From contig OZ219868.1 in NCBI GenBank assembly GCA_964291495.2, positions 80,743-144,742 on the forward strand: a stretch of DNA of 64,000 nt. The letters run 5' to 3'. Under the pieces are notes generated by a model, which saw only the letters and a list, made by a program, of their open reading frames with translations, was not told the DNA's origin and made no database searches. This stretch comes from Dehalococcoidia bacterium (lineage in GTDB: Bacteria; Chloroflexota; Dehalococcoidia; UBA2979). The position numbers and the translations under genes are program-made. Numbering within the stretch: position 1 is the stretch's first letter; the number at the start of each line of letters is the position of its first letter. This document shows positions 1 to 34,003 of this stretch, piece after piece.

Positions 1-172
1 ACACCATGAATCCGCTGCACAGGTCGTAGTAGTCCTTGACCGTCTCCGTGTGGTCGTACCCGGCTTCTGGCGCCGCCCGATCGATCCAGCCGTCGAAGCG
101 CTGGACTCTGTGCCTGACGTCCGTTCCCCGGTACGCATCTCGCAGCTCTCTCGATAGCCTGCGCAACTGCAC
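1..172 (-). CDS. 5' part of a SAM-dependent sterol C24-methyltransferase (SMT/Erg6)-like protein; runs off the left edge of the window
   Basis: Not in the ORF track. The minus strand from GTG at 172 (GGAGGAG SD at 182-188) reads MQLRRLSRELRDAYRGTDVRHRVQRFDGWIDRAAPEAGYDHTETVKDYYDLCSGFMV with no stop. 'TETVKDYYDLCSGFMV' matches the SMT segment (V-x-x-YYDL-x-T/S-x-F) that precedes the GWG-x-SFHF sterol-binding region I. Only 57 codons are visible. Confidence 0.7.
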   Translation of the reverse strand, partial: MQLRRLSRELRDAYRGTDVRHRVQRFDGWIDRAAPEAGYDHTETVKDYYDLCSGFMV

Positions 173-303
173 GCCCTGGCTCTCCTCCCCGATCGCGCCG
201 ATCGTGGTACGCGGTCTGGTCTAGCTGCCTGCTGAGGATGACGCCGATCTCCACGGGGTCGGGCCGTGGCGGTCGGCGACGGGGATGGTTCGCCGCGTCA
301 GCG

Positions 304-2349
304 TTATGAGCTCGCGGCCGGCGCTGTGGGGATCTCGCGCCGCTGCTCGGCGATGTGGAACTTCAGCTTCTTGCTCACCGAGAGCGACGGGAACGGGTCG
401 ATCTTGAGCTTGTAGTTCCTGGGCGCCACCTCGATCGTGAAGTGGTGCGCGAGCAGCAGCAGGTTGACGGCGAGCTGCAGCTCCATCCAGCGGTTCCCGA
501 GGCAGGTATGCGTACCCAGCCCGAACGGGGCGTACCCGGGGCTGAGGTGTTCGTTGCGCGGAGGCAGGTAGCGGTCGATGTCGAATGTCCACGGCTCCGG
601 GAAGATGTCGCTCATGTAGTGCGCCGCTGCCTGGGCGATGAAGATCCGTGACCCCTCCGGGATTTCGTAACCCTCGACCACGCACGCATTCATCACGGTC
701 CGGACGGACATCGGAACGATCGAGTACATGCGCATGGATTCCATGATGAAGCGGCGCGTCACGTCGATCGAGTCCTCCGTGAAGCCCTCGCGTCCGGGAT
801 CGCCGCCATCGAACAGGGCGTCCGCCTCTTCCCGGATCCTGGCGTAGAGCTCGGGCTGGGACGCCATCGCGTAGAGCGCGAAGCTCAGGCCATCGCCGAG
901 GTAGACGCTGGCGATCAGCGGCGCGGAGAGGACGAAGCGCAGGTTCGACTCCGGGAGGAACGAAGGGTCGCTCGAGTGCAAGCTGAGCAGGTCGTCCGCG
1001 AGATCGCGGGGGCAGCCCGCCCGCTGGGCGGCCGTGTGGACACTCTGGACGCGCTCCAGCAGCACCTGGATGCTCTTTGCCCGGCGCCGCATTCCCGGGG
1101 TCTTGAGCATGAACTTGGGCATGACACCCAGGACGTGCGTGGACAGCGCCCGCGTCTTGTACTTGACCAGATCGTCCAGGACGTCCTGCGAGTCGACGCT
1201 GATCATCAGGGGCGAGATCTGGGAGTTGATCAGCTGCCGGCACATGGACACCGCGGGGCGAGTGTCTCCAACCTCCCAGGTCGCCATGTGTGACCGGGTG
1301 TGGTCGTAGAGATCCTCGAGTTGCCCTTCCAGCCTCGCGCGCGAGTACCCCGGCGCCAGGGCCTTGCGGAACCGGAAGTGATCGGCGCCGTCCAGCGCGG
1401 GCAAGATTCCCGATGCGCCATAGACCTTCTCGAAGTCCTGGAGATAGTCCCGGGCCCTCAGGTACGTGCGCCCCTGCCGATGCGCCCAGTAGTTCGTCTC
1501 CGACCCGGCCAGGACGAGCATGGGCTTCTGGAACGGCGGGTTGAGCTGGTACACGGGCCCGTACTGTTCGGCGAGATCCGCGAACAGTGCGGGGAGATTG
1601 CCGTCGCGAAGATGCCGGTGCAGCGCGAACTTGAGCAGCGGTACCTGGGGAATCGACTTCGTAAGGCCGGCACGTCCGATCAAGGGGACGTTCATGTTCT
1701 GGGTGACTGCCTCGGCGATCGCCCGCCCGATCAGGTCCATCCGGCAGACAAGCTCGATGCGCTCCTCCAGCTCGTCGTCGAGCTGGAACATGAAGCGAAA
1801 CACGTCACAGGTATTGACGAGGGCGACAATGATCACGTCACGAGGGTCGGGGATCTCGTTGTTGAAGAGCACCCTGCTGATGCGCGTCTTGACGAACTGG
1901 GCAGCGGTGCCTTCCCTCTCGCTGCTGAACATCTCGGTCTGCCATGCACGATTCGCAAGCGTCCAGAAGTCGCCTTCGTGATGCTCCAGGATCTGTCGAT
2001 CAACCAGGCGCTCAAGCGTCAGGTCGATGATCGACTCTGCACGCGGCGCAAGCCGTTCGATCCAGTATTGCGCGTTTCGCTGCGTCGTTTCACTTGCAAT
2101 CTGATCCAGAATGGGATCCAGAACAGGATTGCCGGTTTCCGTCTGGTCCAGAAGGATCAGGGAGTCCATGTCTGTATCGATACGAGATATGAGCGACAGC
2201 TCCGCAAGTGCGGCGCCGACGACGGCGCAGTTCAAGTGCCAGCCTGGTACCTGGTGAAAGTACCCGCTCTCTTCATTGAGCAGCATCAGGATGAGCTCTT
2301 CGGGCAAACTCAGCGCTTGAGTCGTCACGCGGTCGGTAGCGAGAGTCAT
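304..2349 (-). CDS. GOLPH3/GPP34-domain::cytochrome P450 fusion protein (copy A)
   Basis: N-terminal ~210 aa 'LSLPEELILMLLNEESG...AVVGAALAELSLISRID...TGNPVLDPILDQI...YWIERL...LERLVDRQIL' is typical of the GPP34/GOLPH3 family. The C-terminal P450 has ExxR (ESMR), a PERF-like DIDRY and the heme ligand FGLGTHTCLG. GGAGG SD upstream. Confidence 0.9.
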   Translation of the reverse strand: MTLATDRVTTQALSLPEELILMLLNEESGYFHQVPGWHLNCAVVGAALAELSLISRIDTDMDSLILLDQTETGNPVLDPILDQIASETTQRNAQYWIERLAPRAESIIDLTLERLVDRQILEHHEGDFWTLANRAWQTEMFSSEREGTAAQFVKTRISRVLFNNEIPDPRDVIIVALVNTCDVFRFMFQLDDELEERIELVCRMDLIGRAIAEAVTQNMNVPLIGRAGLTKSIPQVPLLKFALHRHLRDGNLPALFADLAEQYGPVYQLNPPFQKPMLVLAGSETNYWAHRQGRTYLRARDYLQDFEKVYGASGILPALDGADHFRFRKALAPGYSRARLEGQLEDLYDHTRSHMATWEVGDTRPAVSMCRQLINSQISPLMISVDSQDVLDDLVKYKTRALSTHVLGVMPKFMLKTPGMRRRAKSIQVLLERVQSVHTAAQRAGCPRDLADDLLSLHSSDPSFLPESNLRFVLSAPLIASVYLGDGLSFALYAMASQPELYARIREEADALFDGGDPGREGFTEDSIDVTRRFIMESMRMYSIVPMSVRTVMNACVVEGYEIPEGSRIFIAQAAAHYMSDIFPEPWTFDIDRYLPPRNEHLSPGYAPFGLGTHTCLGNRWMELQLAVNLLLLAHHFTIEVAPRNYKLKIDPFPSLSVSKKLKFHIAEQRREIPTAPAASS

Positions 2350-2504
2350 CCATCTTCCTCCCTGCCCGTCATCAAAATAGTGTAGGTCACGCGCTCAGGC
2401 CTCGCAAGGCGACATCCGTGAGACGTCCGGCCAGCCGTGCGGGGAACGCCCCGCTCCCGTATCCTGACTCCGTGCAGCGGACGACAACAGCGGGAAGGCA
2501 GGCC

Positions 2505-3887
2505 ATGGCAACGGGCCGGGGAGCGAGAGCGCCACGGCGAATTGCCATTGTCGGCGGGGGTATTTCCGGGTTGGCCGCGGCGTGGGCGCTGCACCATCAC
2601 CCGGACCGCTTTGACTTCCGCCTCTTCGAGGCTCGGGACCAGCTTGGCGGCAACGCGATCACGGCTGATATGCCGCAAGGTGACGGCAATTCGATCCCGT
2701 TCGACATTTCTGTTACCGCCTGTATCCCATCTGTATACGACCATATTGTCCTGCTCATGGAGCAGTTTGGCATCGAGCTGCTCGACACAAGATTCAGCTA
2801 CAGTGTGAAGTACGCGGGCCAGGTATACGCGCACGACTTCGACTCTGATATCAGGGAAGAACTGCGATCTGAGATTGCGAGATTCCAACGACTCTTAAGG
2901 CGGCTGCATTGGTTCGGAGCCCTCACCCGGTCCCGGTCGAAGCTCCTGAACGCGCTCAATCCGTTCAACTACATCAGCATGGGAACGGTGCTCAATCTGG
3001 GAGGGTTTTCCGCCGACTTCCGCTACAAGGTGTTGAAGCCGATGTTCGTCAACTTCCTGATGGCGACGAACGTGTTCGATATGCCTGCGGCGCTCTTCAC
3101 GAGGTACCTCGAGTTCTTCGATATCGAGACCGCCACGCCGATGCAGACGTGGGACCAGGGCACGCGACGCATCTACGAGCAGCTGTCGGCCGGCTTCCTC
3201 GACAAGATCTCCCTGAGCCGCCCGGTCCGGAAGGTGTATCGCCGCGCCGCCGGAGTCGTCGTCGAGGACGAGGACGGCGCGCGGGAGGCGTTCGACGATG
3301 TGGTCTTCGCGTGCAACGCGAACCAGACGCTGATGATGCTCGACAGGCCTACGATGCTCGAGCGCCAGCTCCTCTCCTCGATTCGCTACGACAGCGAGCT
3401 GCACAACCACGCGATCGTGCACTCGGACTCCTCGGTCCTGCCTGACAACGAGGTCAAGCCGCTGACGACGCGCAGTAATCACATCGAGCAGTACGGGGCG
3501 CGGCCGGACAACTACGAGATCACCTACATCATGCACAACCAGCAGCCGTGGGCGAACAAGTCGGACAAGCCCTGCCTGGTCACCTACAACCCGATCAGCC
3601 GCATCGACGAGGAGAAGATCGTCAAGCGAACGTGGTTCCAGCACATCGTCCACGACGTGCGCCACGTCGCCCTGACCGTGAACCTCTTCCGCTTCATCCA
3701 GGGGAAGCGACGAACCTGGCACTGCGGCGCCCACACGCTGATCAACAGCCAGGAGACGTGCTTCGTCACCGGGCTCGCCGCGGCGAGGCAACTCGGCGCC
3801 GACTACCCCTTCGAGGATCCTGCGGCGCGGCAGTCATTCAACTACTACGGCAGCATCCTCTACGGCTCGCGATTCAGGAAGGCGTAG
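2505..3887 (+). CDS. FAD-dependent oxidoreductase, COG2907-like (amine-oxidase fold; lipid desaturase/isomerase-like)
   Basis: GGGISGLAAAW dinucleotide-binding motif and LFEARDQLGG. Later motifs VFACNANQ, HSDSSVLP, ITYIM, LVTYNP and IQGKRRTWHCGA parallel the COG2907 family. ATG 2505 is preceded by GGAAGG and is preferred over GTG 2418. Confidence 0.8.
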   Translation: MATGRGARAPRRIAIVGGGISGLAAAWALHHHPDRFDFRLFEARDQLGGNAITADMPQGDGNSIPFDISVTACIPSVYDHIVLLMEQFGIELLDTRFSYSVKYAGQVYAHDFDSDIREELRSEIARFQRLLRRLHWFGALTRSRSKLLNALNPFNYISMGTVLNLGGFSADFRYKVLKPMFVNFLMATNVFDMPAALFTRYLEFFDIETATPMQTWDQGTRRIYEQLSAGFLDKISLSRPVRKVYRRAAGVVVEDEDGAREAFDDVVFACNANQTLMMLDRPTMLERQLLSSIRYDSELHNHAIVHSDSSVLPDNEVKPLTTRSNHIEQYGARPDNYEITYIMHNQQPWANKSDKPCLVTYNPISRIDEEKIVKRTWFQHIVHDVRHVALTVNLFRFIQGKRRTWHCGAHTLINSQETCFVTGLAAARQLGADYPFEDPAARQSFNYYGSILYGSRFRKA

Positions 3888-4036
3888 CGCCCGAGGGCCC
3901 TCGTCACAGGGGTCCGGCGGACCCCGCGGCGCGCACCGTTCGGCGTGCGACGAGCGGGTGACTCTCGTATTCTGGATCTGTGCCCGCTTTGCGGGGAGGC
4001 CGTCAACCCGGTATCCGGGGTGAGGAGGGCCGAGCG

Positions 4037-5143
4037 ATGCCAGTCCGACACGGCGAGCCCGCGATTGTCTCGCTGCCCCCGTTCCCCGAGGGCTGGTACT
4101 TCGTCACGAGCCGCAAGGCCCTGCAGCAGGCCGGGCTCATCCAGAAGACCTGGATGGGCGAGGACATCGTCGTCTGGACTGACGAGGAAGGCCGCGCCTG
4201 CGTCGCCGAGGCCATCTGCCCGCACCTGGGCTCCGATCTGGGACCCGACGCGGGCGGGCGCGTCTGCGCCGGCCGGCTCGTCTGCCCCTTCCATGGCTTC
4301 GAGTTCGATACGACCGGCCAGTGCGTCGACACTCCCTACGCTCCCCCGCCCAGGTCCGCCAGGCTGCGCGTCTTCGAGACACGAGAGATCGCCGGCCTGA
4401 TCTTCGGCTGGTGGGGGATCGGAGGTCGGGAGCCTCAATGGAGCCTCCCCGAGGAGACGCCGGACCAGACCGGCTGGAGCGAGGTGTACGTCCAGACGCT
4501 CCGCTTCCCCGGCCACCCCCAGGAGATCGCGGAGAACTCGGTGGACCTGGCCCACCTCCGCTACATCCACGGCTACCACAGCGTGAACCGCGTCGAACCG
4601 GCCTCGGTAGACGGGCACCACATGGTGAGCCGGTTCGACTTCACGAGTCGCCGCAAGGTCGCGAAGGTGGCGACCCTCACCTTCGAGCTCTCCGCCAACA
4701 CCGACATCTACGGGCTGGGCTACTCGTTCGTCGACATCCGGGAGCACACGATCGGCATGGATCTGCGTCTGTGGATCCTGGCGACGCCCGTTGACGGCAC
4801 GCTCGTCGACATGACGCTGGCCTCGCAGGTGCGGGAGATCAGCAACCCGAAGCGACTGTTCGTCGGCCTGGGCTTCCTCCCGCGCAAGCTCCGCGCCCCG
4901 CTCATGAACAGGTTCATGGCGTCCCGGCAGCGTCAGGACGTGCTGGACGACGTCGTGATCTGGAGCCGCAAGCAGTTCGTGTCGCCTCCGCGCCTCAACC
5001 GCTCCGACGGCGAGATCATGGCCTATCGGGCGTACTGCGCCCAGTTCTACCCCGACCCGACCGCCGACGAGAGCGCCGCTGCGACGCACATGGCGCCGCC
5101 CCGGGAAGTCCCGAGAGCCGCGGCCGTCTCGCTGCGCGACTAG
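4037..5143 (+). CDS. Rieske non-heme iron oxygenase, Neverland/DAF-36 (cholesterol 7-desaturase) / KshA-like
   Basis: FPEGWY N-terminus, Rieske ligands CPHLG...CPFHG, mononuclear Fe motif ENSVDLAHLRYIH, and C-terminal D-x-x-IW-x-x-K...P-x-L...DGEI-x-x-YR-x-Y-x-x-QFY characteristic of sterol Rieske oxygenases. GAGGAGG SD before ATG 4037. Confidence 0.85.
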   Translation: MPVRHGEPAIVSLPPFPEGWYFVTSRKALQQAGLIQKTWMGEDIVVWTDEEGRACVAEAICPHLGSDLGPDAGGRVCAGRLVCPFHGFEFDTTGQCVDTPYAPPPRSARLRVFETREIAGLIFGWWGIGGREPQWSLPEETPDQTGWSEVYVQTLRFPGHPQEIAENSVDLAHLRYIHGYHSVNRVEPASVDGHHMVSRFDFTSRRKVAKVATLTFELSANTDIYGLGYSFVDIREHTIGMDLRLWILATPVDGTLVDMTLASQVREISNPKRLFVGLGFLPRKLRAPLMNRFMASRQRQDVLDDVVIWSRKQFVSPPRLNRSDGEIMAYRAYCAQFYPDPTADESAAATHMAPPREVPRAAAVSLRD

Positions 5144-6486
5144 GCGGGCGCCTCGAGTGGCGCCCGCTTCGGCGGCGGCTCACGTGAGGCGAGGATAGCG
5201 AGGGCGCCGCCGAGGTAGGCGGCGACGAAGGCCGCAAATACGCCCTCGTACGACCCGACCGCGTCGAAGTACAGCCCACCGAGGACGGGACCCAGCGCAC
5301 CGAAGACGATCGTGAACGGCGCCGCGACGCCTCGCACCGCCCCGATGTGCACGCGCCCGAAGTACTTCGCCCAGATGAACTCACTGAGCGGTACCGTTCC
5401 ACCGAACCCGAAGCCCCAGAAGAAGAACGCGACGAACATCAGCGGCAGCGCTCCCAGCTGCGCCGCGACGAGCATGGTGACGACGCCCGTCGCCGAGATC
5501 GACAGCGCCGTCGCCCCGAGGTAGCGGACGTGCACCCGCTGCAGGAAGTAACCCCACACGAACTTCGAGCTGAGGTTGGCGCCGCCGTTGACCGCGATCG
5601 CCAGCGCGGCCTCGGTGCGCGTGAAGCCGTTGTCCGTCATGAACGGAATGGCGTGCACCAGCACCGCCAACAGCGCCATGGTGTTCAGCCCGTAGCCGAC
5701 GATCAGCAGCCAGATCGCCGGCGTGCGCAGCGCCTCGCCGCGCGTGTAGGAGTTCGCGGCGTCCTGCGCCTGAGCCTCGGCCGCCGTGCCGCCGCCCCTC
5801 GCCCGCGCGCCGGGCTCGACGCCGTCGGGTCGAAGACCGTGGTCCTCGGGCCGCCGCCGCATCACGAGCGCGACCGGCACGACGATCGCGAACATGAACA
5901 GCGCGAGGATCGCGTAGGCGTCGCGCCACCCGGTCGAGTCGACAATGCGCGTCATCGTCAGCGGCATGATCAGCCCCGCGAGCGAGATGCCCGACGAGCC
6001 GAGCGCGATCGCCCAGCCGCGCCGCAGCACGAACCACTTCGAGAGCGTCGCGTTCACGACGAGCGGTCCGACCATCGAGAATCCGGCGCCGCCGGCGATC
6101 ATCGAGAGCGCGACGAACTGCCACAGCTCCTCGACACGCGACATCGCGAAGAACGAGACGGCGTAGACGCAGGCGCCGGCAAGCATCAGCGGCCGCGCCC
6201 CGTAGCGGTCGATGAACGGCCCGGCCACGAACCCGGCGACGCCGCCAAGCAGGAAGGCGGACGAGCCGCCGAGGGTGTACTCGGCCGCGGTCCAGCCGAG
6301 TTCCTCGGTCATCGGGCGGAGGAAGACGCCGGCGATGGCCCCGCCGGCGCCCATCGCCGCGAACTGGGCGACGATCGCCCCGGCGACGATGTACCAGCCC
6401 CAGAAGACGCGGCGAGGCCTCGCGGCGGGTAGTGCCCTCGAGCGCGGCTCGTCGTCGTCCACGGGCGCGGCGGGCTCGCGACTCAT
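5140..6486 (-). CDS. MFS transporter
   Basis: About 12 hydrophobic segments, MFS motif A (GPFIDRYGARP) and WFVLRRG. TATGCT -10 box 6 nt before the ATG suggests a leaderless mRNA. Confidence 0.9.
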   Translation of the reverse strand: MSREPAAPVDDDEPRSRALPAARPRRVFWGWYIVAGAIVAQFAAMGAGGAIAGVFLRPMTEELGWTAAEYTLGGSSAFLLGGVAGFVAGPFIDRYGARPLMLAGACVYAVSFFAMSRVEELWQFVALSMIAGGAGFSMVGPLVVNATLSKWFVLRRGWAIALGSSGISLAGLIMPLTMTRIVDSTGWRDAYAILALFMFAIVVPVALVMRRRPEDHGLRPDGVEPGARARGGGTAAEAQAQDAANSYTRGEALRTPAIWLLIVGYGLNTMALLAVLVHAIPFMTDNGFTRTEAALAIAVNGGANLSSKFVWGYFLQRVHVRYLGATALSISATGVVTMLVAAQLGALPLMFVAFFFWGFGFGGTVPLSEFIWAKYFGRVHIGAVRGVAAPFTIVFGALGPVLGGLYFDAVGSYEGVFAAFVAAYLGGALAILASREPPPKRAPLEAPA

Positions 6487-6659
6487 GGCGGCAGCATAGC
6501 GGCAGTGGAGGCTCGGTCAGGCGCGCAGCGCGGTCCAGCTCCGCCATGGACCGGCAGCGCGGTTCAATGCCAGAACCTGGGTCGTGTCCGGGAGTACGGC
6601 CGGCCAAGGAGGACCGTACTGCGAGCTTCACAGCATGTACAGAGGGCTGCTCATCGTCA

Positions 6660-6840
6660 CGGACGGTCGCGAATCTGAGGGCGGGTGTGCGGGTCGAGGT
6701 GCCGATCATCGAGGCGGTCGAGGGCTCAGATCTTGTTACCAATGAACAGACACCGGTTTCCGCGTTCAGAAGCGACAAGATCGAGCGCGTGCCGTTGGTC
6801 GTGACCGTCCCGCTCACGCGCCGGAAGACCCGACAACTGG
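6660..6840 (+). pseudogene. Probable degraded gene fragment, homologous to 16620-16713
   Basis: The + frame reads ...VRVEVPIIEAVEGSDLVTNEQTPVSAFRSDKIERVPLVVTVPLTRRK with GC3-rich codons. The SDKIERVPLVVTVPLTRR block recurs at 16645. No credible start/SD. Confidence 0.4.
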
Positions 6841-7072
6841 CTACGGCGCCCTCGCCTGATCGTCCCAGGGGGTCTCGTCCTGAGTGCCGCAGCGCCGTCC
6901 CGGATCTCAGTGTGTAGTAGGAGAAGCGCCTACTAGTGGGGTGCGGTCTCGGGACTGATGAGACCGCGGCGTTCCTCGCCCCGGGTGCGGATCCAGGTGA
7001 CCAGACACATGAGGCGGTCACGGGGCAGTCGCCTGCTGTCGCGGTAGTCGCGGGCACGATTAGGGCCGAGTG

Positions 7073-7170
7073 AGACATTGAGCAGTAATCGGTACAAATT
7101 GACCGCTGCATTGGACGGAAACACAACAACCAATGGTTATGATCCACACGCTATATCACTGATTCGCATC
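7073..7170 (+). promoter_or_regulatory. Conserved upstream promoter/operator module of P450 copy B (homologous to 13638-13734)
   Basis: AGACATTG-N2-CAGTA-N5-TACAA...TGGACG...AACAACC...TATGAT(-10, 7138-7143)CCA...ATCAC-T-GATTCGCATC. The same blocks occur in the same order upstream of the P450 at 13571. Confidence 0.7.
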
Positions 7171-7251
7171 CTAGGCAGGGATGGGAGCCGACGTTCGGAC
7201 GGGCGGTACCACAACTTCACGGGAGCCGATGTGTTCCAGGAGGAGGATTCC

Positions 7252-9240
7252 GTGAGCCACCTGAGCCTGGCCGATAATCTGTGCCTGCTGATGCTCGATG
7301 ACGCTTCCGGGAGCCTCTGCCGCCTCGAGGGGCGAACCCGAGACTTCGGCTTCGCGGCCGCGGTCCTGTTGGAGTTGGAGCAGCATGAACGCATCCAGAC
7401 CCAGCCGGGCCTGCTGTCCGTCATCGATGCAACACCGCTCGGTGACCCCGTCGCGGATCCGGTGCTCGCTGAGGTCGCGGACAGTGATCACTCGTCTCCG
7501 CAGGACTGGGTGCGACGTATTGGCTCTCGGTCCGGCTCGGAGATAGCCGCCGCCACCCTGGACCGGCTCGTAGCACGCGGAGTCCTTGAGCAGATACCGG
7601 GCGACCTGTTCTTCCTCCCGTCCGAGGTGGCGCGTTCACAGCGCTACCCGGGGGCAGTAGGCGGCGCTGACGAGGTCCGCATCCGGGTGATGCGGGCACT
7701 CTTTGGCGGCGACGCCCCGGATACATCCGATGCGGACCTGATAGGGCTCGCCGATTCCTGCGGTGTCTTCGGCGTCATCCTGAGCGCTGGCGAGTTCGAC
7801 AAGGTGAGGGATCGGATCGGAGAGATTGCGCCACGCAACCCGCTGTGCCGAGCGGTTGAGCAGGCGGCGGCCGACGACCTGGCCGCGCAAGGGCCCTCGC
7901 GCGGGGCGTTCCCGCCGATACCCGAGGTCCGGGGGCTTCCGATCCTCGGCAACGCGGTGGGCATGGCCGGCAACCTGCAGCCATTCCTCGACAAGCAGTA
8001 CAGGCGGCATGGTCCAGTTTTTGGTCTTCGAGTGCCGGGGAGACGCATGGTCGTCATGGCGGGCAAGGAAGCTGTTGCTTTCATGAAGGAGCATTCCCAG
8101 ACGCACCTTCGCAGCAACCGGTCGTTCACTGACTTTCTGGACGCGATGGAGACAGATCGCTCGATCATCTCAATGGACGGTCACGATCACATCAAGCTCC
8201 GGCGCATCGCTCACGCGGGCTACAACGAGATGACCGTCGCAGACAACCTGTCAACGGTCATCGAGGTCACCCGCCGCGCCGTCGCCTCCTGGCCCACTGG
8301 ACGACCGCTTTCGGTGTACCCCGCAATGCAGGAAATCGTGATTCCGCAACTCGGCGTTGTCGCAACCGGACTTGCGCCCACCGAATTCGTGGACGATCTC
8401 CGGTACTGGTTCGACTCGCTCGTGATTGCAATGCGTCGCGACCGTCCGAAGTTCATGGTCGAGTACCGGCTGCGCAAGGTGCGTCCCAGAATCAGGGAAC
8501 TGTTCCACCGGGCCGTGGAGTTGCACGACCCCGAATTGCGCGATGGACGCCCTCGCGACCTGCTCGATGAGTTCATGGACCTGCGGAGGCGGGATCCGCA
8601 GTTCCTTCCGGAGACCGACCTGGCCTCTTCCGTGGTGGCTCCATACATCCAGGCATTGGACCCCGTCGCCGGGACCTTGGGGTTCGCCCTGTTGCGCCTG
8701 TTGGCAGAGCCGCAGCATGCCGAGGCTCTCCAGGAGGAGGCCGATGAAGCGTTTGCCGCCGGGCTGGCGGATGCGGATGCCATTAGCGGACTGGAGAAGA
8801 CGTACGCCTTCCTTGCCGAGGTCATGCGCTGCCACACGATCACGCCGGTGATGCTGCGCACGGCGTGCAACGCGTTCGAGTTCGAGGGCCACTGGGTGCC
8901 CGCCGGCACTTCGCTGTGGATGGCTCCGGGGGTGGTCCACAGCGACCCCGATCATTATCCGAACCCCGAGCGATTCGAACCTGAGCGGCATTTGCCCCCA
9001 CGCCTGGAATCCACGGAGCAGGGCGCGTTCGTCCCCTTCGGGGTCGGTCCTCACTCCTGCCTCGGAGAGTCGTTCGCCAAGGATCAGATGGCGGTGACGC
9101 TTGCGACCCTGCTGCACTACGCGGAGTTCGACCGCTATCCGAGTCGAGACAACCGCATGAGGATCACTTCCTACCCTTCACTCCGTCCGCACCGCAAGAG
9201 CCGCGTTCAGGTGAAGCGTCAGCGGTCCGCCCAGCGGTGA
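7252..9240 (+). CDS. GOLPH3/GPP34-domain::cytochrome P450 fusion protein (copy B)
   Basis: GTG at 7252 after AGGAGG. N-terminal 'LSLADNLCLLMLDDASG...AAAVLLELEQHERI...LGDPVADPVLAEV...DWVRRI...LDRLVARGVL' is GPP34-like. P450 motifs EVMR, PERF and FGVGPHSCLG. Confidence 0.9.
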   Translation: MSHLSLADNLCLLMLDDASGSLCRLEGRTRDFGFAAAVLLELEQHERIQTQPGLLSVIDATPLGDPVADPVLAEVADSDHSSPQDWVRRIGSRSGSEIAAATLDRLVARGVLEQIPGDLFFLPSEVARSQRYPGAVGGADEVRIRVMRALFGGDAPDTSDADLIGLADSCGVFGVILSAGEFDKVRDRIGEIAPRNPLCRAVEQAAADDLAAQGPSRGAFPPIPEVRGLPILGNAVGMAGNLQPFLDKQYRRHGPVFGLRVPGRRMVVMAGKEAVAFMKEHSQTHLRSNRSFTDFLDAMETDRSIISMDGHDHIKLRRIAHAGYNEMTVADNLSTVIEVTRRAVASWPTGRPLSVYPAMQEIVIPQLGVVATGLAPTEFVDDLRYWFDSLVIAMRRDRPKFMVEYRLRKVRPRIRELFHRAVELHDPELRDGRPRDLLDEFMDLRRRDPQFLPETDLASSVVAPYIQALDPVAGTLGFALLRLLAEPQHAEALQEEADEAFAAGLADADAISGLEKTYAFLAEVMRCHTITPVMLRTACNAFEFEGHWVPAGTSLWMAPGVVHSDPDHYPNPERFEPERHLPPRLESTEQGAFVPFGVGPHSCLGESFAKDQMAVTLATLLHYAEFDRYPSRDNRMRITSYPSLRPHRKSRVQVKRQRSAQR

Positions 9241-9442
9241 AGCCTGCCGGCGTAGCCCGCGGTGACCACGGAAGCCAGGGTTGGCCGCCCGCAGGGTCCG
9301 AGGTCCGCATGGCACTCGCCTGTTGGTGCGGGGCACGTCTCTCCCGTAGTCCGTGTATCCGCGTCGTCGCGTGGTGGTCCGGTGGGCGGGTGGCGGCTGC
9401 ACGGTGTCGAGCGGCCGCGCCGCTCACACGGAGTGGCGTGCG

Positions 9443-12067
9443 ATGAACCAGGCGCTCTCCCGTCTGACCTGGCTGGTCACGGCTCGCCCCTGGGTCACGA
9501 TCTTCGTCCTCCTGCTGACTACGGTGGTGCTCGCTGCGGGGGCGGAACGGCGCGCGCCTGTGGTGGAGGGCGCAGTGCTCGCGTTCCTCCCACCCGGACA
9601 CCCCATTGCGGAGGCGTCGAACGAAATCGACGAGCTCTTTGGGGATTCGGGCGAAGTGACGGTTGTCACGATCATCTTCCGCGGGAATGCGTTCACGCCC
9701 GAAGGGCTCGCCCAGATGGATGCGCTCACCTGGGGCGTCCTTGCCGACGCACAGGTGGAAGCAGTGCTGGCGCCCGGTGAGTCAGTGATCGCGCCCTCTT
9801 TGCTCGTCCGGGAGGCGCTCCAGGTAGACAGCTTCGAGTCGGTCACGCAGGCGCAGATCAACTCCGCCCTCGGTTCACCCGAGATCGAAGAGGTGCTGGC
9901 AGCGATGACCGCATCCGACGCAGACGGCAACCCTGTGGCGATCGCCACGGTGCGGCTGAGCGACGCGGACGAGCGGAAGGTCGCGGATGCGGAGAGGCGG
10001 ATCAATGAGCTGACGGCCGGAAACGTGGGCCCGTTACGTGTGAGCAGCGTGTCGCCCGTTGTTGTCGAGGCCGAGTACAGAGACGCTACCGAGTCGGGGA
10101 TGCTGCCCCTGATCGCGCTCGCGCTTGGGTTGGTCGCATCCCTGATCCTGCTGTTTCTGCGTACGCTCGCGGACCTCTTGCTCACGCTTCTGGGGCTATT
10201 CGTCGCCCTCATCTGGGTCGTCGGCGCGGAGGGATGGCTTGGGCCACATGGTCTTGGCTGGATCGGCCCGCCGAGCTCGCACAGCGCGATGGTCCCGATC
10301 ATCGTGATCAGCCTCACCGTGGACTATGCCATCCAGACTGTCTCGAGCTATCGCGAGCAGCGAACCGCGGGGTTGCCGGTGGCCGATGCGATCGGAACGG
10401 GACTGGGACACGTCGCGATTCCACTGATGCTGGCTGCCGTGACGACGATCGCGAGCCTGCTGACGAATCTGTTCTCGCCCATCGGCGCGGTGGGCGACTT
10501 CGGCATCGTCGCGGGCCTCGGGGTTGGCCTGAGCCTGATCGTGATACTGACCCTGCTCCCAGCGGGACGGATGATCATCGACCGGCGGCGCGAGCAGCGC
10601 GCCACGCTCGCTCCGCCCCGTCCGGTCTCGAGTGCGCTGCCGGGCGTCAGGCGCGCTGCGGAGTTGCTGGGAACGTCTGTCACGCGCCGGCCGGCCCCGT
10701 TCATCCTTGTCGTGCTCGCGATCACGGTCGGACTCGGGTTCGCGGCCGCGCGGCTCGAGACCGGATTCGACATCCGCGACATCCTGCCAAGGGGCGGGAC
10801 CGTGCTGGAGGACATCGAGACCCTCGAAGCCTTCGGCGGATCCACGGAGATGGCGAGCGTACTCGTGAAGGCGGAGGCGACTGACACCCGCACGTACCTG
10901 AACCTGAACGATCTCAGGGTTGCCTTCGAAGATGATCGGCTCCGGCCACAGGCAGCTGCAGGGCCCATCCACACCTCATACGAGCTGCTTGTGCACGACT
11001 GGACGCACGACAGCGGCGAAGAGGGCGACAAGTACGATGCCGGGCTCGCAGAGCTCTTCCGCCACGCTTCGGTCGGCCTGAGGCTGAATCCGGTGCTGCT
11101 CCAGGAGCTTCTCGACAGGCTGAAGGCGAAGGAGCCCGCCCTCGTCAGCGTACTTGCCGACAATCCCGATGGAATCGATTCGTTGCTGTTCCAGTTCCCG
11201 ACCTTCTCAGGCGATCCCGAAGCAACAAGGGCGCTGCAGCAGGACATCGAAGCGCTGTGGCGAGAAAAGGACGTGAGCGTGACGGTTACGTCGCTGGACG
11301 TCGTTTCCGTCGCAGTCACGGATGAGATCACGCGCGGTCAGACGGCGGCGATCAGCACGACGATCGCGGTAGCCATCGGCGTCCTCGCCATCTTCTTCTG
11401 GGTGACACTGCGGCAACCCGCGCTTGCATTCATTGCGGTGGTGCCGGTGGTGCTCGCACTCATCTGCGTGCTGGGAACGATGGCGCTCCTGGACATTCCC
11501 TACAACCTGATCACATCCATCATCACCGCGCTCTCCATCGGGATCGGCGTTGACTACACCATCCACATCATCCATCGCTACCGCGAGGAGTTCGCCCGCT
11601 CGCGCAGCCCGGAGCAGGCGGCGGTCAGCACGCTTGCAACCATCGGCTCGGCGCTGTTGGGCTCGGCACTGACGACGGCGCTCGGCCTCGGGGTGCTGGT
11701 GTTTTCGCCGCTGCTCGCTTCCCAACAATTCGGCATCACGGCGGCGATCACCATCGCGTACTCGCTGGTCATCTCCATCCTGCTCGTTCCGCCCGCGATG
11801 ACGGTCTGGGGGTCGTACCAGAACATGCGGTTGCGCTCGATGGTGGAGCGACGTGGGCAGAGCTCGATGTGGCCATTGAGGATGCGTACCAGCGCCACGG
11901 GGAGAGAGCGGGCCTGGCCTAGGATGTTCCTGCCCGCCTGGTCCGGTACGAATGCGCTGAGGGGTGGGGAGCTCTTCGAAGGTCTGTCGGCGTCTCCGCT
12001 GTCCGCAGTCGGCGGTCGCGCGCCGGTCTGGTTGGTCAGGCTGATGTGCGCGGCGAGGTGCGGATGA
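9443..12067 (+). CDS. MMPL/RND-family lipid transporter; the C-terminus probably carries a 1-nt frameshift (alternative stop at 11922)
   Basis: Two repeats of (TM + large extracytoplasmic domain + 5 TM), RND signatures SLTVDYAIQ and GIGVDYTIHIIHRYREE, and GSALLGSALTT. ATG 9443 is preferred as start. Confidence 0.88.
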   Translation: MNQALSRLTWLVTARPWVTIFVLLLTTVVLAAGAERRAPVVEGAVLAFLPPGHPIAEASNEIDELFGDSGEVTVVTIIFRGNAFTPEGLAQMDALTWGVLADAQVEAVLAPGESVIAPSLLVREALQVDSFESVTQAQINSALGSPEIEEVLAAMTASDADGNPVAIATVRLSDADERKVADAERRINELTAGNVGPLRVSSVSPVVVEAEYRDATESGMLPLIALALGLVASLILLFLRTLADLLLTLLGLFVALIWVVGAEGWLGPHGLGWIGPPSSHSAMVPIIVISLTVDYAIQTVSSYREQRTAGLPVADAIGTGLGHVAIPLMLAAVTTIASLLTNLFSPIGAVGDFGIVAGLGVGLSLIVILTLLPAGRMIIDRRREQRATLAPPRPVSSALPGVRRAAELLGTSVTRRPAPFILVVLAITVGLGFAAARLETGFDIRDILPRGGTVLEDIETLEAFGGSTEMASVLVKAEATDTRTYLNLNDLRVAFEDDRLRPQAAAGPIHTSYELLVHDWTHDSGEEGDKYDAGLAELFRHASVGLRLNPVLLQELLDRLKAKEPALVSVLADNPDGIDSLLFQFPTFSGDPEATRALQQDIEALWREKDVSVTVTSLDVVSVAVTDEITRGQTAAISTTIAVAIGVLAIFFWVTLRQPALAFIAVVPVVLALICVLGTMALLDIPYNLITSIITALSIGIGVDYTIHIIHRYREEFARSRSPEQAAVSTLATIGSALLGSALTTALGLGVLVFSPLLASQQFGITAAITIAYSLVISILLVPPAMTVWGSYQNMRLRSMVERRGQSSMWPLRMRTSATGRERAWPRMFLPAWSGTNALRGGELFEGLSASPLSAVGGRAPVWLVRLMCAARCG

Positions 12068-12146
12068 TCGGGGCCGACACGGGGACAGATTCTCTCACCA
12101 CGGCACGGCCGTTGGTGGCGTCCCGGGCTCTCGTGGGTCCCGGCAC

Positions 12147-13571
12147 TCAGCGGCGACGTTCGAGTCTCATCGGCATGCCGCCCTTCACCTTGAGGCTCAT
12201 GCGAGGCACAACTTCCGCCTTGCCGGTCGCGTCGGCGCGCCAACGACGGCACAGGCTAGCCAGCGCGATCTTCGCCTCCATCCACGCGAAGCCCTCGCCG
12301 ATGCACTGGTGTGGGCCTCCCCCGAAGGGGAAGTACGCGAAGCGCGGCAGCTCACTGCGGAACTCGTCCGTCCAGCGCCCGGGGCGGAACTCCAGCGGAT
12401 CCTCGAACCAGCGCGGATCGCGCTGCGTGATGAACGGCGCTGCTATCACCGTGACGCCCGCCGGGACGTGGTATCCGCCCACGTCGATGGGCTCGTACAC
12501 CATCCTGCCCAGCGCCCAGAACGGCGGATAGAGCCTCAGTGTCTCCGTGATGATCTGGTCGGTGAGGGGCAGCTGGGGCAAGTCGTCGAGTGTCACTTCG
12601 CGATCGCCCAGCACACCGTCCAACTCCGCATGGAACCGCTCTTCCACGTCGGGGTTCCGCGAAAGGAGATGGAACGCGTACGCGAGGGTCGTCGCCGTGG
12701 TGTCGTGCCCGGCGAGGTACAGAGAGACCGCCTCGTCACGCACCAGCTCGTCGCTCATCCCGCCGGCGTCCTCGCCTTCCGCATCCTCGTACCTGGCCTG
12801 TAGCAGCATGCACAGCAGGTCGTCCCCCTCGGCCCCGGACTGCCGGCGTTCGCGGATCAGGCCGAAGATCAGGTCGTCCAGGTAGGCGCGAGCAGCCTTG
12901 AAGCGCCTCGAGGAAGGCAGCGGCAGACGATGGAGCAGGTGCCGCAGGAACACCGGCTGGGTCAGGCGGAGATACATGTACCTGTCGGCCTCCGCGAACG
13001 ACTCACCCACGCGCCGGACCACCTCGCTCGTCTCGATATCGAACAGGGCCTTGGCCACCATCTGGAGCGTCAAGTCCCGCATCTCCTGCTCCATGTCCAC
13101 ACTGGCGCCGTCCTGCCACTGCCGGGACTTCCGGGACGAGATGTCGGTCATCGCGTGAGCGTATTTCTCGATGAACCTGTGATGGAACCGGGGCTGTATC
13201 AGCCGCCGCTGCTGCAGGTGAAAGGCTCCCGTGGATGCGACGAGGCCGTCTCCCATCATCCAGCGCACGGTCTCGAACGCAGCGGCGCCCCTGCCGGTAT
13301 TCTGGTGGTTGGTCACCAGGACCTGCTGGTTGAGTTCCGGGTGATTCACGAGATAGATCAGGATCGGCTTCATCGCCACGGTGCTGACATCACCGTACGT
13401 GGCGGCCTCCTGCAACAGACCAATCAAGTCGGACCGCAGGCGGAACGCCTGCCCGAGCACTGGCAGCCCGGATGGCCCAGGGGGGCGTTCAGCTGACTGG
13501 ATGGACGGTCTGGGAGGATCGGAGAGCGGCTCGGCGTTGGTCGTGACCGACTGTGCCGGGCGTGGCTGCAT
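12147..13571 (-). CDS. Cytochrome P450 (canonical, soluble; copy C)
   Basis: PPGP N-terminal motif, I-helix AGHDTT, ETLR, PGRW and heme motif FGGGPHQCIG. Start uncertain (13571 or 13607). Confidence 0.93.
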   Translation of the reverse strand: MQPRPAQSVTTNAEPLSDPPRPSIQSAERPPGPSGLPVLGQAFRLRSDLIGLLQEAATYGDVSTVAMKPILIYLVNHPELNQQVLVTNHQNTGRGAAAFETVRWMMGDGLVASTGAFHLQQRRLIQPRFHHRFIEKYAHAMTDISSRKSRQWQDGASVDMEQEMRDLTLQMVAKALFDIETSEVVRRVGESFAEADRYMYLRLTQPVFLRHLLHRLPLPSSRRFKAARAYLDDLIFGLIRERRQSGAEGDDLLCMLLQARYEDAEGEDAGGMSDELVRDEAVSLYLAGHDTTATTLAYAFHLLSRNPDVEERFHAELDGVLGDREVTLDDLPQLPLTDQIITETLRLYPPFWALGRMVYEPIDVGGYHVPAGVTVIAAPFITQRDPRWFEDPLEFRPGRWTDEFRSELPRFAYFPFGGGPHQCIGEGFAWMEAKIALASLCRRWRADATGKAEVVPRMSLKVKGGMPMRLERRR

Positions 13572-13637
13572 CACGCTATCCCGTTCGCCGGAGATGGCCG
13601 GCGCCACTGCGGGAGGCGAAAGCCCGGCGCGTCCAGC

Positions 13638-13734
13638 GATGCGAATCTGTGATCCTGCAATGGATCCTAGCTACCGGTTGTTCTGGTTTCGTCCAGCGAG
13701 GACCATCAGTTGTATAAAATACTGTGCAATGTCT
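13638..13734 (-). promoter_or_regulatory. Conserved upstream promoter/operator module of P450 copy C, in the divergent region shared with the hybrid kinase
   Basis: Minus strand AGACATTG-CA-CAGTA-TTTTA-TACAA...TGGACG...AACAACC...TAGGAT(-10, 13669-13664)CCA...ATCAC-A-GATTCGCATC; collinear with 7073-7170. Confidence 0.7.
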
Positions 13735-13838
13735 TCAGCGAAGGGTATCCTCCCTCGGGGTGACTGCTACTGAGGGCGCCGGCTCCCATAACAGCCGCAT
13801 ATGCCCGCTGCTGAGGTCGAGATTCCGGGAAGGCGACT

Positions 13839-16238: not shown

Positions 16239-16619
16239 CCCGCGCGAGGGAACAACGCCCGGCACCGCCTTCGTTCGTCGCCCCTGGGTTCCTCCAATGC
16301 GTCGCCTGAGGTATCTCGCGAGGCCGCGCACCGCGCGTGGATGGAGGCATCCATCTCGTTGTTGGGACGGTGCAGATCCCGAAGCTGGATCAGGCTTCCA
16401 CCCTCGCCTGACGGCCCTCCCCTCGCGGACTCGCCGCTGAGCCATCCCCGGCCTGGGGCGAAGTCCCACAGACATGAGCGTGGACCTGGTCTGAGTCTGG
16501 TCGCCCGCATCTCGGGCGGTCAGCTCGTGAAGGCAGTCGCCTTCAATCGCGGTCACCCGGGCTGGATCAGGCCCTGCGGACGATATTGCCGAGCGCTGCT
16601 CTCGCAGGGCGCCACCACC

Positions 16620-16713
16620 CAGGAACATGGGCGTCACTGTTCAAAGCGACAAGATCCAGCGTGTGCCCGCGGGGGTGACGGTGGCGCTCTCGAGGCGCGC
16701 CGATCGCGATTGA
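16620..16713 (+). pseudogene. Probable degraded gene fragment or small ORF (ATG 16627-TGA 16713, MGVTVQSDKIQRVPAGVTVALSRRADRD), homologous to 6771-6824
   Basis: 13 of 18 codons encode the same residue as 6771-6824, several through synonymous changes. Confidence 0.4.
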
Positions 16714-16958
16714 GCGGTGACAGCACGGTCGATGCGCGCGCATCCAATGTCGTCGCCACGGTGTCCAAGACTAACGACTCTTCGATTCTGCCCAACCGAC
16801 GAGGCTGGTGACGCCGCCGCGTCCCCGCTGCGAATCCCGACCGCCAGGATTCTCGTCGGGCCTGTCCCCGCACCAGCGACGACGCGACTCGCCCGCTGGC
16901 CTTCCGAAGCCGATCCGTTGCTGAGTCCACCCTCTTCTGGATCCCAGAGGGTTTCCTC

Positions 16959-19403: not shown

Positions 19404-19470
19404 TGGCTCCGACGGACCGTTCTGCGCTCTCAGGCAGATGTGAGCGAAATATAATCGCGATGGTCCAGAA

Positions 19471-19488
19471 TGTCATCCCCGTGTCATC
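19471..19488. promoter_or_regulatory. TGTCATC direct repeat with 11-bp period; candidate OmpR/PhoB-type binding box
   Basis: TGTCATC-CCCG-TGTCATC at 19471-19477 and 19482-19488, about 70 nt upstream of the wHTH-containing hybrid regulator. Confidence 0.5.
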
Positions 19489-19597
19489 TTACGGGCGCTA
19501 GACTTTCAGATACTTGTTGCCGCTGATGACGGCGTCGCCCGCAGCAAGCGAGTGGGGCACCCTCGTTCTTGCTACAGCCCGCAGGGAGGTATGACCG

Positions 19598-19822
19598 GTG
19601 GCCCGAGATAGCGAGCCATGCGCGGGAGAGATCCCTGCGCTTCAGCAGGAGCTGCGCCGGGAGTTCGCCAGCCTGCGGGAGCGATGCGCCGCCGCTGATC
19701 ACCGGCTAGAGAGCATCGATGACACTCTCGACAGATTCGAGGTCAAGTTACAGCGTATCGAGGCCGTCCTGGCGCGCGCGTTCCAGGACGAGTACGCCGC
19801 CACCCGGCGCTCCGGCATCTAG
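19598..19822 (+). CDS. Small hypothetical coiled-coil protein
   Basis: GGGAGG SD before GTG. Heptad-like 'LQQELRREFASLRER...LESIDDTLDRFEVKLQRIEAVL'. Confidence 0.55.
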   Translation: MARDSEPCAGEIPALQQELRREFASLRERCAAADHRLESIDDTLDRFEVKLQRIEAVLARAFQDEYAATRRSGI

Positions 19823-20180
19823 GCCTGGACAAGAGGCGCCATTGGTGTGGTGGACAGAGGGTAGGTGAGCGGGCAGGGCTCACCGAGCGGTCGTCGCCCC
19901 ACGACTTGATGTCCGGTCGGGCGGCGTTCGTCGAGACCGAGCTTGGCAGGTTCCGGGAGCGCTCCTCGATGGGCAAGCGCGGTCCCGCCAGCCGACATCG
20001 AGATCGTGTACGTCAACTAGGCCTCGTCGCTCAGTGCTCGCTGCGTCTTCGCGCTTGTCTCCCGCGGCCTTGTTGTCCGCCCGTTCATGCTTCGGTTGCA
20101 GAACGCCCGGCGGATGGATGCTAACGCCGGAAGATGGAGGACCCTGTGTCAGGCCCTCGCGAGGGGCGCCATTCGTGAGG

Positions 20181-33867: not shown

Positions 33868-33963
33868 TGGCCTCGCCATGGTACGGCCAGCGCTCGCGCG
33901 CGGGCAACGTCGCCGGTGGCCCTTGAGGCGAGGCGCGGCAGGGCGTAGGCTGGGCAGACACAC

Positions 33964-33977
33964 CGCACGTTTGTTCG
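33964..33977. promoter_or_regulatory. Candidate LexA (SOS) box upstream of lhr
   Basis: CGCAC-GTTT-GTTCG, one mismatch from the Gram-positive/Chloroflexi-type CGAAC-N4-GTTCG, 26 nt before the lhr ATG. Confidence 0.5.
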
Positions 33978-34003
33978 CAGCAGTGCCAAATGACGGAGTA
34001 CCG

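Follow-up and report, generated by a model that had tools for sequence, protein, structure and literature searches.

The left end of the window, a stretch of 64,000 nucleotides from the metagenome-assembled genome (MAG) of a sponge-associated Chloroflexota bacterium (Dehalococcoidia), probably carries a horizontally shared sponge-symbiont cassette for sterol tailoring and envelope transport, which in this organism would act on exogenous sterols. The core of the cassette consists of fusion A, a GPP34::P450 fusion protein, and a KshA-type Rieske non-haem-iron oxygenase; usually it also comprises a sterol methyltransferase (SMT), an LkcE-like flavin adenine dinucleotide (FAD) enzyme and an RND lipid transporter. 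The window corresponds to G000:C2:80743-144742 of an assembly of 3.08 Mb with ~70% G+C, 8 contigs, 93.7% completeness and 3.68% contamination. Gene identities are based on the listing of open reading frames (ORFs) and a Pfam profile search, and the contig was additionally extended leftwards. The genes of the cassette, fusion B and the adjoining transporter are located as follows (positions in the window; lengths in amino acids, aa):

1-172, minus strand: 5' end (57 codons) of the SMT gene, which continues leftwards to G000:C2:79893 and encodes 340 aa as a whole
304-2349, minus strand: fusion A, GPP34::P450, 681 aa (GPP34 107.9 bits, residues 15-216; p450 132.3 bits, residues 244-660)
2418-3887, plus strand: flavoprotein of the FAD-dependent amine-oxidase family, 489 aa (Amino_oxidase 66.9 bits; NAD_binding_8)
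3980-5143, plus strand: KshA-type Rieske non-haem-iron oxygenase, 387 aa (Rieske 67.2 bits, KshA_C 91.8 bits)
7078-9240, plus strand: fusion B, GPP34::P450, 720 aa (GPP34 106.1 bits, p450 174.6 bits)
9353-12067, plus strand: MMPL/HAE3-type RND transporter 2, here MMPL-2 (MMPL 147.9 bits, Sterol-sensing 58.7 bits, Patched sterol-sensing domain 47.3 bits)

A scan of species-representative genomes yields 552 confirmed relatives of fusion A. The best 80 of these, each with 10 kb on both sides, were searched by tblastn with the proteins of the window; they comprise 63 loci of Chloroflexota, six of Nitrospirales, five of Latescibacterota and two each of Opitutia, Gemmatimonadota and Binatia. The partner counts are lower bounds, because contig ends truncate several loci. 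Counting 10 kb to either side of fusion A, the Rieske gene is present in 64 of the 80 loci and in six phyla, SMT in 56, MMPL in 51 and the flavoprotein in 49, with all four partners in 33 loci. No other partner stays with fusion A as constantly as the Rieske gene, with SMT in second place. Gene order and strand vary between phyla, yet the genes remain together. As the relatives possess at most one SMT per ~3-Mb genome, we estimate the chance of its lying within 10 kb of fusion A at under ~1%, compared with the 56 of 80 loci observed.

All 3501 ORFs of the 80 loci were also clustered without prior assumptions. The MMPL partner is confined to Chloroflexota loci, and an AcrB-type RND pump and an HlyD-type adaptor are each found in 11 of the 11 loci from Latescibacterota, Gemmatimonadota, Binatia and Opitutia; in L031, taken as representative, the pump gene is the direct upstream neighbour of fusion A. 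This distribution suggests that a lipid-type RND transporter has been kept through non-orthologous replacement. In 20 Chloroflexota loci (L021-L035 among them; e.g. L029:16843-19346) an LppX_LprAFG-like lipoprotein and a different MFS transporter are inserted between flavoprotein and Rieske gene; lipoproteins of the LppX_LprAFG family carry lipids in mycobacteria. An LppX-like match in the window itself (3692-4045) was dropped, its ORF overlapping the 3' end of the flavoprotein gene.

JGI metagenome contigs provide 55 further loci, 48 of them with fusion A, of which 30 hold at least 12 kb. These 30 loci contain SMT (18), the Rieske gene (18), the flavoprotein (10), MMPL (10) and AcrB (5). Co-localisation in other genomes, set beforehand as a test of the sequence-only reading, is therefore found in the 80 genome loci and in metagenome contigs. 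Among 41 relatives of the source organism, 18 possess the fusion, 13 of them together with SMT, and SMT was found in none of the 23 others, kin not being independent of each other; G029, a member of another family, holds both. In four of the relatives, all of the window's genus (G004, G011, G014, G017), only a truncated or frameshifted fusion gene remains and SMT was not found, which looks like a joint decay of the cassette. G012 retains the full fusion, and SMT was not found there.

A system built around both fusions, as the sequence-only reading had it, does not emerge from these comparisons. The conserved cassette includes fusion A and not fusion B: an orthologue of the latter was found in none of 40 relatives and in one of the 80 loci, a 76%-identical copy beside fusion A in the Binatia locus L087. 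The two fusions share 30% identity, and fusion B is a divergent paralogue, probably of separate acquisition. Fusion B, MMPL-2 and the stand-alone canonical P450 further downstream represent a further addition of similar character, specific to the lineage.

Sterol genes beside the cassette and the probable source of its substrates

The Nitrospirales genome G041 possesses the cassette in continuity with a sterol synthesis cluster, in the order squalene epoxidase::oxidosqualene cyclase fusion (SE::OSC, 1269 aa), CYP51, ERG4/24, SdmA-like, SdmB-like, SMT-2, flavoprotein, outer-membrane beta-barrel protein, KshA-type Rieske, SMT and fusion A. Its CYP51 matches the Methylococcus enzyme (6mcw) at E 4.6e-105, the SdmA-like protein is a Rieske/VanA_C protein distinct from the KshA-type Rieske, and the SdmB-like one an epimerase/3-beta-HSD. 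SdmA-like and ERG24 genes occur beside fusion A in all six Nitrospirales loci, and SE::OSC within 10 kb in three of them. An apparently conserved 'unk329' of the Nitrospirales locus proved to be an antisense frame of the second SMT. SMT orthologues with 77-78% identity adjoin SE::OSC, CYP51 and ERG24. CYP51 and the fusion are the only two P450 genes of G041, which argues that the fusion performs an extra step and is not the demethylase. In G016, from the genus of the window, MMPL is followed by a 54%-identical fusion paralogue and then by SE/OSC; a contig-end fragment of G007 shows the same pairing of fusion paralogue and SE/OSC. The module is thus very probably sterol-related, and the sequence-only view of a conserved, sterol-linked tailoring and transport module gains from the linkage across six phyla and from the continuity with the sterol synthesis cluster.

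The genome of the window itself presents a different inventory. Its 3.08-Mb assembly has no match to PF13243 (cyclase) or PF08491 (epoxidase), tblastn with the symbiont SE::OSC fusion found nothing, and no orthologue of CYP51 or SdmA/B was detected, so that the missing squalene epoxidase and oxidosqualene cyclase, first remarked for the window, extend to the whole assembly. PF13243 likewise has no match in 16 of the 18 other members of the genus, several of them assembled in 1-2 contigs, and no cyclase was found in the Latescibacterota holder G042; G043 and G044 yield weak partial matches, and the cyclase that scores high in the Binatia genome G045 is SHC-like and remote from the cassette. The genome does hold a reductase of the ERG4_ERG24 family (G000:C1:9112-10251, locus L100, 119 bits), a family matched in none of 14 control genomes. 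This ERG4/ERG24 homologue is 31% identical to the copy in the Nitrospirales cluster and adjoins SDR and MFS transporter genes. Two tandem SQS_PSY-family genes (G000:C5:912667-914342; 245.6 and 237.6 bits) are squalene-/phytoene-synthase-like.

As cyclase, epoxidase and CYP51 are missing from the genome, the cassette rather likely acts on external sterols or late intermediates in this organism; these substrates would be taken from the sponge or from neighbouring symbionts. For the earlier suggestion of host-derived sterols this means that the lack of cyclase and epoxidase stands, and that the host as their origin is deduced from missing genes and not observed. De novo synthesis in this organism too, with cyclase, epoxidase and CYP51 falling into the gaps of an assembly of eight contigs that is 93.7% complete, would agree with the two genus members that hold an OSC-type cyclase beside the fusion paralogue. 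We regard it as very unlikely, considering the 16 genus members without a PF13243 match, 1-2-contig assemblies included, and the number of unlinked genes (SE, CYP51 and SdmA/B orthologues besides the cyclase) that would all have to be missing.

The GPP34::P450 fusions

A single open reading frame encodes the 681 aa of fusion A, and its orthologues measure 673-682 aa. The best 120 database matches all combine PF05719 and PF00067 at 68-96% identity and belong, where named, to Chloroflexi, Dehalococcoidia, Nitrospira and Opitutae MAGs; among the relatives from the genome scan the closest are Chloroflexi bins with 95% identity, which places the window's organism with the Dehalococcoidia-type Chloroflexota. 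In fusion B the GPP34 domain begins at residue 64, so its true start may lie downstream.

The P450 domains of the fusions keep the Cys-ligand loop F..G.H.C.G and the EXXR motif (invariant G380, G382, H384, C386, G388 and E307..R310 in P450-part numbering). The acid-alcohol pair of the I-helix (..AG.[DE]T[TS]..) is not present in the alignment of either fusion, fusion A having ..IASV-YLGD.. and fusion B ..IQALDPVAG.., and this deviation is retained in the L024 and L087 orthologues. The pair is present in the CYP51 of G041 (..AGQHTS..) and in the two ordinary P450s of the window's own genome (..AGHDTT.. and ..AGHETT..). Fusion A shows no high similarity to solved CYP51s (E 9.5e-20 to 6mcw, versus E 4.6e-105 for the true CYP51 of G041). 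A Foldseek search with its 681-aa AF2 model (mean pLDDT 73.9, pTM 0.68) gave generic P450 matches only, CYP51 being nominally first but tied with many others, so that no substrate was deduced from it; ESM Atlas neighbours are informative at family level only. Together with the lack of a redox partner nearby (see below), the I-helix deviation allows for non-canonical P450 chemistry.

The GPP34 domains of both fusions lie above the Pfam cut-off of 29.1 bits. A single-sequence search of the PDB with the domain gave no match, and the relation to GOLPH3 and Vps74 is established by profile only: a GPP34 profile of 15 sequences matches GOLPH3 (3kn1) at E 4e-8 and Vps74 at about 6e-8. The phosphatidylinositol 4-phosphate (PI4P) pocket of human GOLPH3 is formed by W81, R90, R171 and R174. 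These residues align to V34, G45, E105 and I108 in fusion A, i.e. none of the four is identical, in a weak alignment of 35-36 bits with nearby indels and with a Trp three residues beyond V34. A stand-alone GPP34 gene of the same genome (G000:C5:29287-30069, 141 bits; neighbourhood L101:8104-17173) adjoins an MMPL gene (281 bits), an ABC1 kinase, a 400-aa P450 and a flavin-monooxygenase-like gene. It is conserved across the genus and represents the second GPP34-P450-MMPL association of the genome. The weak GOLPH3 alignment without the pocket residues and the stand-alone GPP34 beside MMPL favour a membrane- or lipid-targeting role of the GPP34 domain inside the bacterium.

Proteins of this architecture, which the sequence-only reading considered undescribed, have been published as GPP34_L (Ferreira et al. 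2025, Microbiome; PMC11706023), and sponge-symbiont SMTs and steroid clusters are likewise in print (PMC10070321, PMC9531527). GPP34_L is identical to fusion A in its arrangement of an N-terminal GPP34 and a C-terminal P450, is reported from sponge symbionts only, and occurs in the same kinds of MAGs (Chloroflexota, Nitrospirota and others), with several copies per genome in distinct lineages; a stand-alone gene resembling the short form GPP34_S, with a P450 nearby, is also present in the window's genome, as described above. PMC11706023 proposes secretion of the GPP34 proteins, which would then bind PI4P and prevent phagosomes from maturing. The difference is one of context: GPP34_L was published as an effector, and here it is embedded in a cassette of sterol-linked enzymes and a transporter. 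In the main text of PMC11706023 the words 'sterol', 'methyltransferase' and 'MMPL' do not occur, and flanking genes are reported there for GPP34_S only.

If the fusion were such a host-manipulation effector, the sterol genes beside it would be incidental or separate. The profile matches to GOLPH3 and Vps74 accord with this, as does PMC11706023, in which 656 of 663 GPP34_L proteins combine GPP34 and P450, all from sponge symbionts, and GPP34 is expressed in 45 of 107 A. aerophoba MAGs. We nevertheless hold it to be unlikely: the synteny with SMT, Rieske, flavoprotein and RND pump, sometimes also with SE::OSC and CYP51, is kept across phyla, no hydrophobic, signal-like stretch is apparent by eye, without a predictor, at the N-terminus of fusion A, the PI4P-pocket residues find no identical counterpart in the (weak) alignment, and the stand-alone GPP34 adjoins MMPL and P450 as well.

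Partner enzymes and the proposed reactions

The leftward extension turns the partial SMT-like gene of the sequence-only reading into a complete gene (G000:C2:79893-80915, 340 aa) in which Methyltransf_11 (64.3 bits) is followed by Sterol_MT_C (61.7 bits, cut-off 21.7); PF08498 is likewise shared by each of its top 120 homologues. Eukaryotic SMTs have the consensus ..YEYGWG.SFHF.. in region I and ..IEATCHAP.. in region II. Region II is present here as ..IESTCHAP.., and region I is altered to ..MVWGWSESLHF... The assignment of the methyltransferase to the sterol type is upheld by Sterol_MT_C, the SMT-type motif and the 77-78% identical orthologues beside SE::OSC, CYP51 and ERG24. With orthologues in SE::OSC/CYP51 clusters as genomic support, the enzyme is predicted to methylate C-24 of delta-24 sterols. 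A protein of 477 aa (P0139), 82% identical to the SMT and with an additional KshA_C domain, may be a natural SMT-Rieske fusion or an artefact of gene calling.

Symbiont SMTs with the same Methyltransf_11 and Sterol_MT_C domains and of sponge-symbiont origin are active in vitro (Brown et al. 2023; PMC10070321), and 11 of the 24 tested have no OSC in their cluster or MAG; two SMTs in one cluster occur there as they do in the Nitrospirales loci. 'P450' and 'Rieske' do not occur in the main text of that paper, and the fusion, the KshA-type Rieske and the flavoprotein are not mentioned in the parts consulted. A direct link to a tested SMT was sought through its scaffold JGIcombinedJ30088_10000835, which is not among the 55 fusion-bearing metagenome contigs; three other contigs of the JGIcombinedJ30088 metagenome are. 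The 'CSGs' of sponge symbionts (Kelly et al. 2022; PMC9531527), with ERG24-CYP51-LSS cores and SMT, likewise extend over many symbiont phyla with horizontal transfer and SMT enrichment, and the Nitrospirales loci contain the CSG core. The core was not found in the genome of the window, and the portions of PMC9531527 at hand do not name the fusion, the KshA-type Rieske, an LkcE-like flavoprotein or RND pumps. The link between GPP34_L and sterol metabolism and the cassette of fusion, Rieske, flavoprotein, SMT and RND transporter therefore appear to be new, neither being found in the published texts covered, supplements excluded.

The Rieske protein shares the Rieske and KshA_C domains with the KshA and Neverland/DAF-36 class, with visible CPH...CPFH and D..H....H motifs. 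Its nearest solved relative is KshA5 (4qdc, residues 33-360), a full-length likeness at E 1.2e-22 only. It is not the SdmA equivalog NF052579 (34.3 bits, cut-off 600) and, Atlas neighbours included, is equally near to KshA-type and to 'cholesterol 7-desaturase family' clusters. Its translation may actually begin a few codons further downstream. KshA systems differ in their catabolic setting, the context here being anabolic, and in their reductase: no KshB-type reductase was found among the genes scanned (L001, the window to 42 kb and the recurrent neighbour families), the rest of the genome being unsearched.

The flavoprotein is the most conserved partner, with 75-88% identity across phyla; among solved structures it is closest to LkcE (6f7l, E 2.7e-31) and 2b9w (E 7.4e-12). 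The combination of a SAM methylase of the CFA-synthase kind and an NAD/FAD-binding desaturase is shared with UfaM/UfaD of furan fatty acid synthesis (PMC7380195), in which the FAD desaturase prefers the methyl-branched product. The likeness is an analogy of pairing, and UfaM/UfaD act on acyl chains as opposed to the putative sterol side chains here. Both MMPL proteins, MMPL-2 and the 827-aa protein encoded upstream of the window, match the sterol-sensing domain (SSD). HpnN (hopanoids), BstA (bacterial sterols) and MmpL3 share with them the MMPL fold, SSD/Patched matches and a position adjoining lipid-modifying enzymes; the scores in the window's genome are below the cut-offs for HAE3 (198 bits) and far under the equivalog cut-offs for HpnN (114.7 versus 751.85 bits) and BstA (43.6-46.5 versus 1400 bits).

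Taken as a pathway for acquired sterols, the SMT would alkylate C-24, the Rieske enzyme would hydroxylate or desaturate the ring system, and the flavoprotein, by analogy with the UfaM/UfaD pair of methylase and FAD desaturase, would desaturate or isomerise a C-C bond. The P450, held at the membrane by GPP34 instead of a transmembrane anchor, might carry out a further, possibly non-monooxygenase step, and the SSD-type RND pumps might move substrate or product. Confidence in these specific reactions is low. Those put forward in the sequence-only reading, C7 desaturation and ring oxidation, go back to family names and are not supported beyond them; the Rieske protein is as near to KshA-type as to 7-desaturase clusters.

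The same families allow two other substrates or directions to be considered. In steroid catabolism or detoxification the Rieske protein would serve as KshA-like 9-alpha-hydroxylase, the P450s as side-chain hydroxylases and the transporters as importers of host sterols. The KshA5 relationship, the adjacent MFS and RND transporters, a lipid-transfer/thiolase-like gene 5 kb upstream (PRK07855, 364.9 bits) and the steroid catabolism genes reported from sponge metagenomes (PMC5790920) fit this scheme. We judge it improbable, because SMT, the second most constant partner (56/80), is an anabolic enzyme, genes of sterol synthesis lie next to the cassette in Nitrospirales and G016, and the thiolase-like gene accompanies fusion A in L013 and L026 only (99% identity each); no KstD-, Hsa- or beta-oxidation-type domains occur among the cluster genes, a genome-wide search for the 9,10-seco pathway not having been made. 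Alternatively, the target could be a lipid of the bacterium's own (acyl, isoprenoid or hopanoid), which a CFA-synthase-like methylase, UfaD-like flavoprotein, P450 and MMPL would modify and export. The SMT also matches CMAS (64.7 bits), the solved relatives of the flavoprotein have polyketides or fatty acyl chains as substrates, the MMPL/HAE3 and HpnN-like scores stay under their cut-offs, and the genome lacks a detectable cyclase but has two SQS_PSY genes. A non-sterol lipid is highly improbable to us in view of Sterol_MT_C above its cut-off in the SMT and present in all of its best 120 homologues, the SSD matches of both MMPLs, the ERG4/24 reductase of the genome and the OSC and CYP51 genes adjoining the cassette in other holders.

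Several observations weigh against sterol tailoring by a shared cassette, the reading preferred here. No partner accompanies fusion A in four of the 80 loci, and the Latescibacterota and Gemmatimonadota loci have neither SMT nor flavoprotein within 10 kb. For all proteins the basis is family membership and gene neighbourhood, and none of 10 proteins reaches an NCBIfam equivalog cut-off. Region I of the SMT is altered. The P450 similarity of fusion A is generic, CYP51 being nominally first and tied with BM3, CYP184A1 and CYP97C1, and neither the cluster nor the next 25 kb showed a gene for ferredoxin, ferredoxin reductase or a KshB-like protein, the rest of the genome being unsearched. Steroid catabolism likewise employs KshA-type Rieske oxygenases and P450s, and the thiolase-like gene lies 5 kb upstream. 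At 93.7% completeness a cyclase could be missing from the assembly. Finally, one RNA run, in the form of contigs, covers 28 of 30 bins, with 317 of 505 pieces only 90-95% alike; such pieces derive from relatives, DNA carry-over is possible, and they are not counted as transcription of the locus.

Most holders examined are without an OSC-type cyclase, yet keep SMT, sterol reductase and sterol-type transporters, a combination that points to remodelling of exogenous sterols by bacteria. It is conceivable, and put forward tentatively, that at least six symbiont phyla, mostly without sterol-ring synthesis, share a mobile cassette for the import of sterols from host or community, for their remodelling by C-24 alkylation, by ring oxidation or desaturation and by an unusual P450 step, and for their export. 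A P450 without the O2-activating acid-alcohol pair may rearrange oxygenated sterols without a redox partner. Bacteria would then be a hidden source of the 'unconventional' sterols of sponges and of sterane biomarker precursors, and bacterial GPP34 would be a membrane- or sterol-targeting module of lipid enzymes and not a PI4P effector. Bacterial remodelling of exogenous sterols would bear on the origin of sponge-specific sterols and on the reading of 24-alkylated sterane biomarkers. The large orphan GPP34::P450 family (at least 552 loci), for which host manipulation is the only published hypothesis, gains a testable biochemical context, and the atypical P450, the KshA-type Rieske oxygenase and the LkcE-like flavoprotein are candidate enzymes for bacterial sterol chemistry.

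Neighbouring genes and base composition

The remaining genes in and next to the cluster are:

5140-6486, minus strand: MFS transporter, 448 aa (MFS_1 153 bits)
12147-13607, minus strand: stand-alone canonical P450, 486 aa (p450 279 bits)
13839-16238, plus strand: hybrid sensor of GAF-PAS-histidine kinase-receiver-OmpR type (Pfam)

On the left the cluster reaches ~3.4 kb beyond the window, where genes for a PAS-LuxR regulator and for the second MMPL/SSD transporter (827 aa) are located; downstream it is followed by two hybrid sensor kinases and then by unrelated genes. All earlier domain calls (fusions A and B, flavoprotein, Rieske, MMPL, P450) are borne out by Pfam; the earlier gene list had missed the MFS transporter and the upstream MMPL/SSD transporter. 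The MFS gene is lineage-specific, with at least 89% identity in L013 and L026 only. The canonical P450 has a normal I-helix (..AGHDTT..), its nearest solved chains being 3dbg (E 1.3e-68) and 7wzl; CYP51 was ruled out as its identity (E 3e-40 to solved CYP51). It is not conserved beside fusion A in other loci, with at most 31% identity.

G+C content is 0.62-0.69 across positions 1-20000 of the window, compared with 0.66-0.75 in most of 22000-64000, and the lower value of the cluster is consistent with horizontal acquisition. The hybrid sensor at 13839-16238 is a possible regulator of the module; at useful identity it adjoins fusion A in none of the 80 loci, with partial matches of 33-34% in two of them. 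Together with the gene at 16959-19403 (minus strand) it forms a pair of convergent paralogues, each combining GAF, PAS, HisKA, HATPase, receiver and OmpR-type DNA-binding domains in one polypeptide. Further downstream the window contains two ordinary DNA-repair genes on the plus strand, a Lhr-type large helicase of 1501 aa (33878-38383) and a full LigD with phosphoesterase, ligase and primase/polymerase parts (39318-42071).

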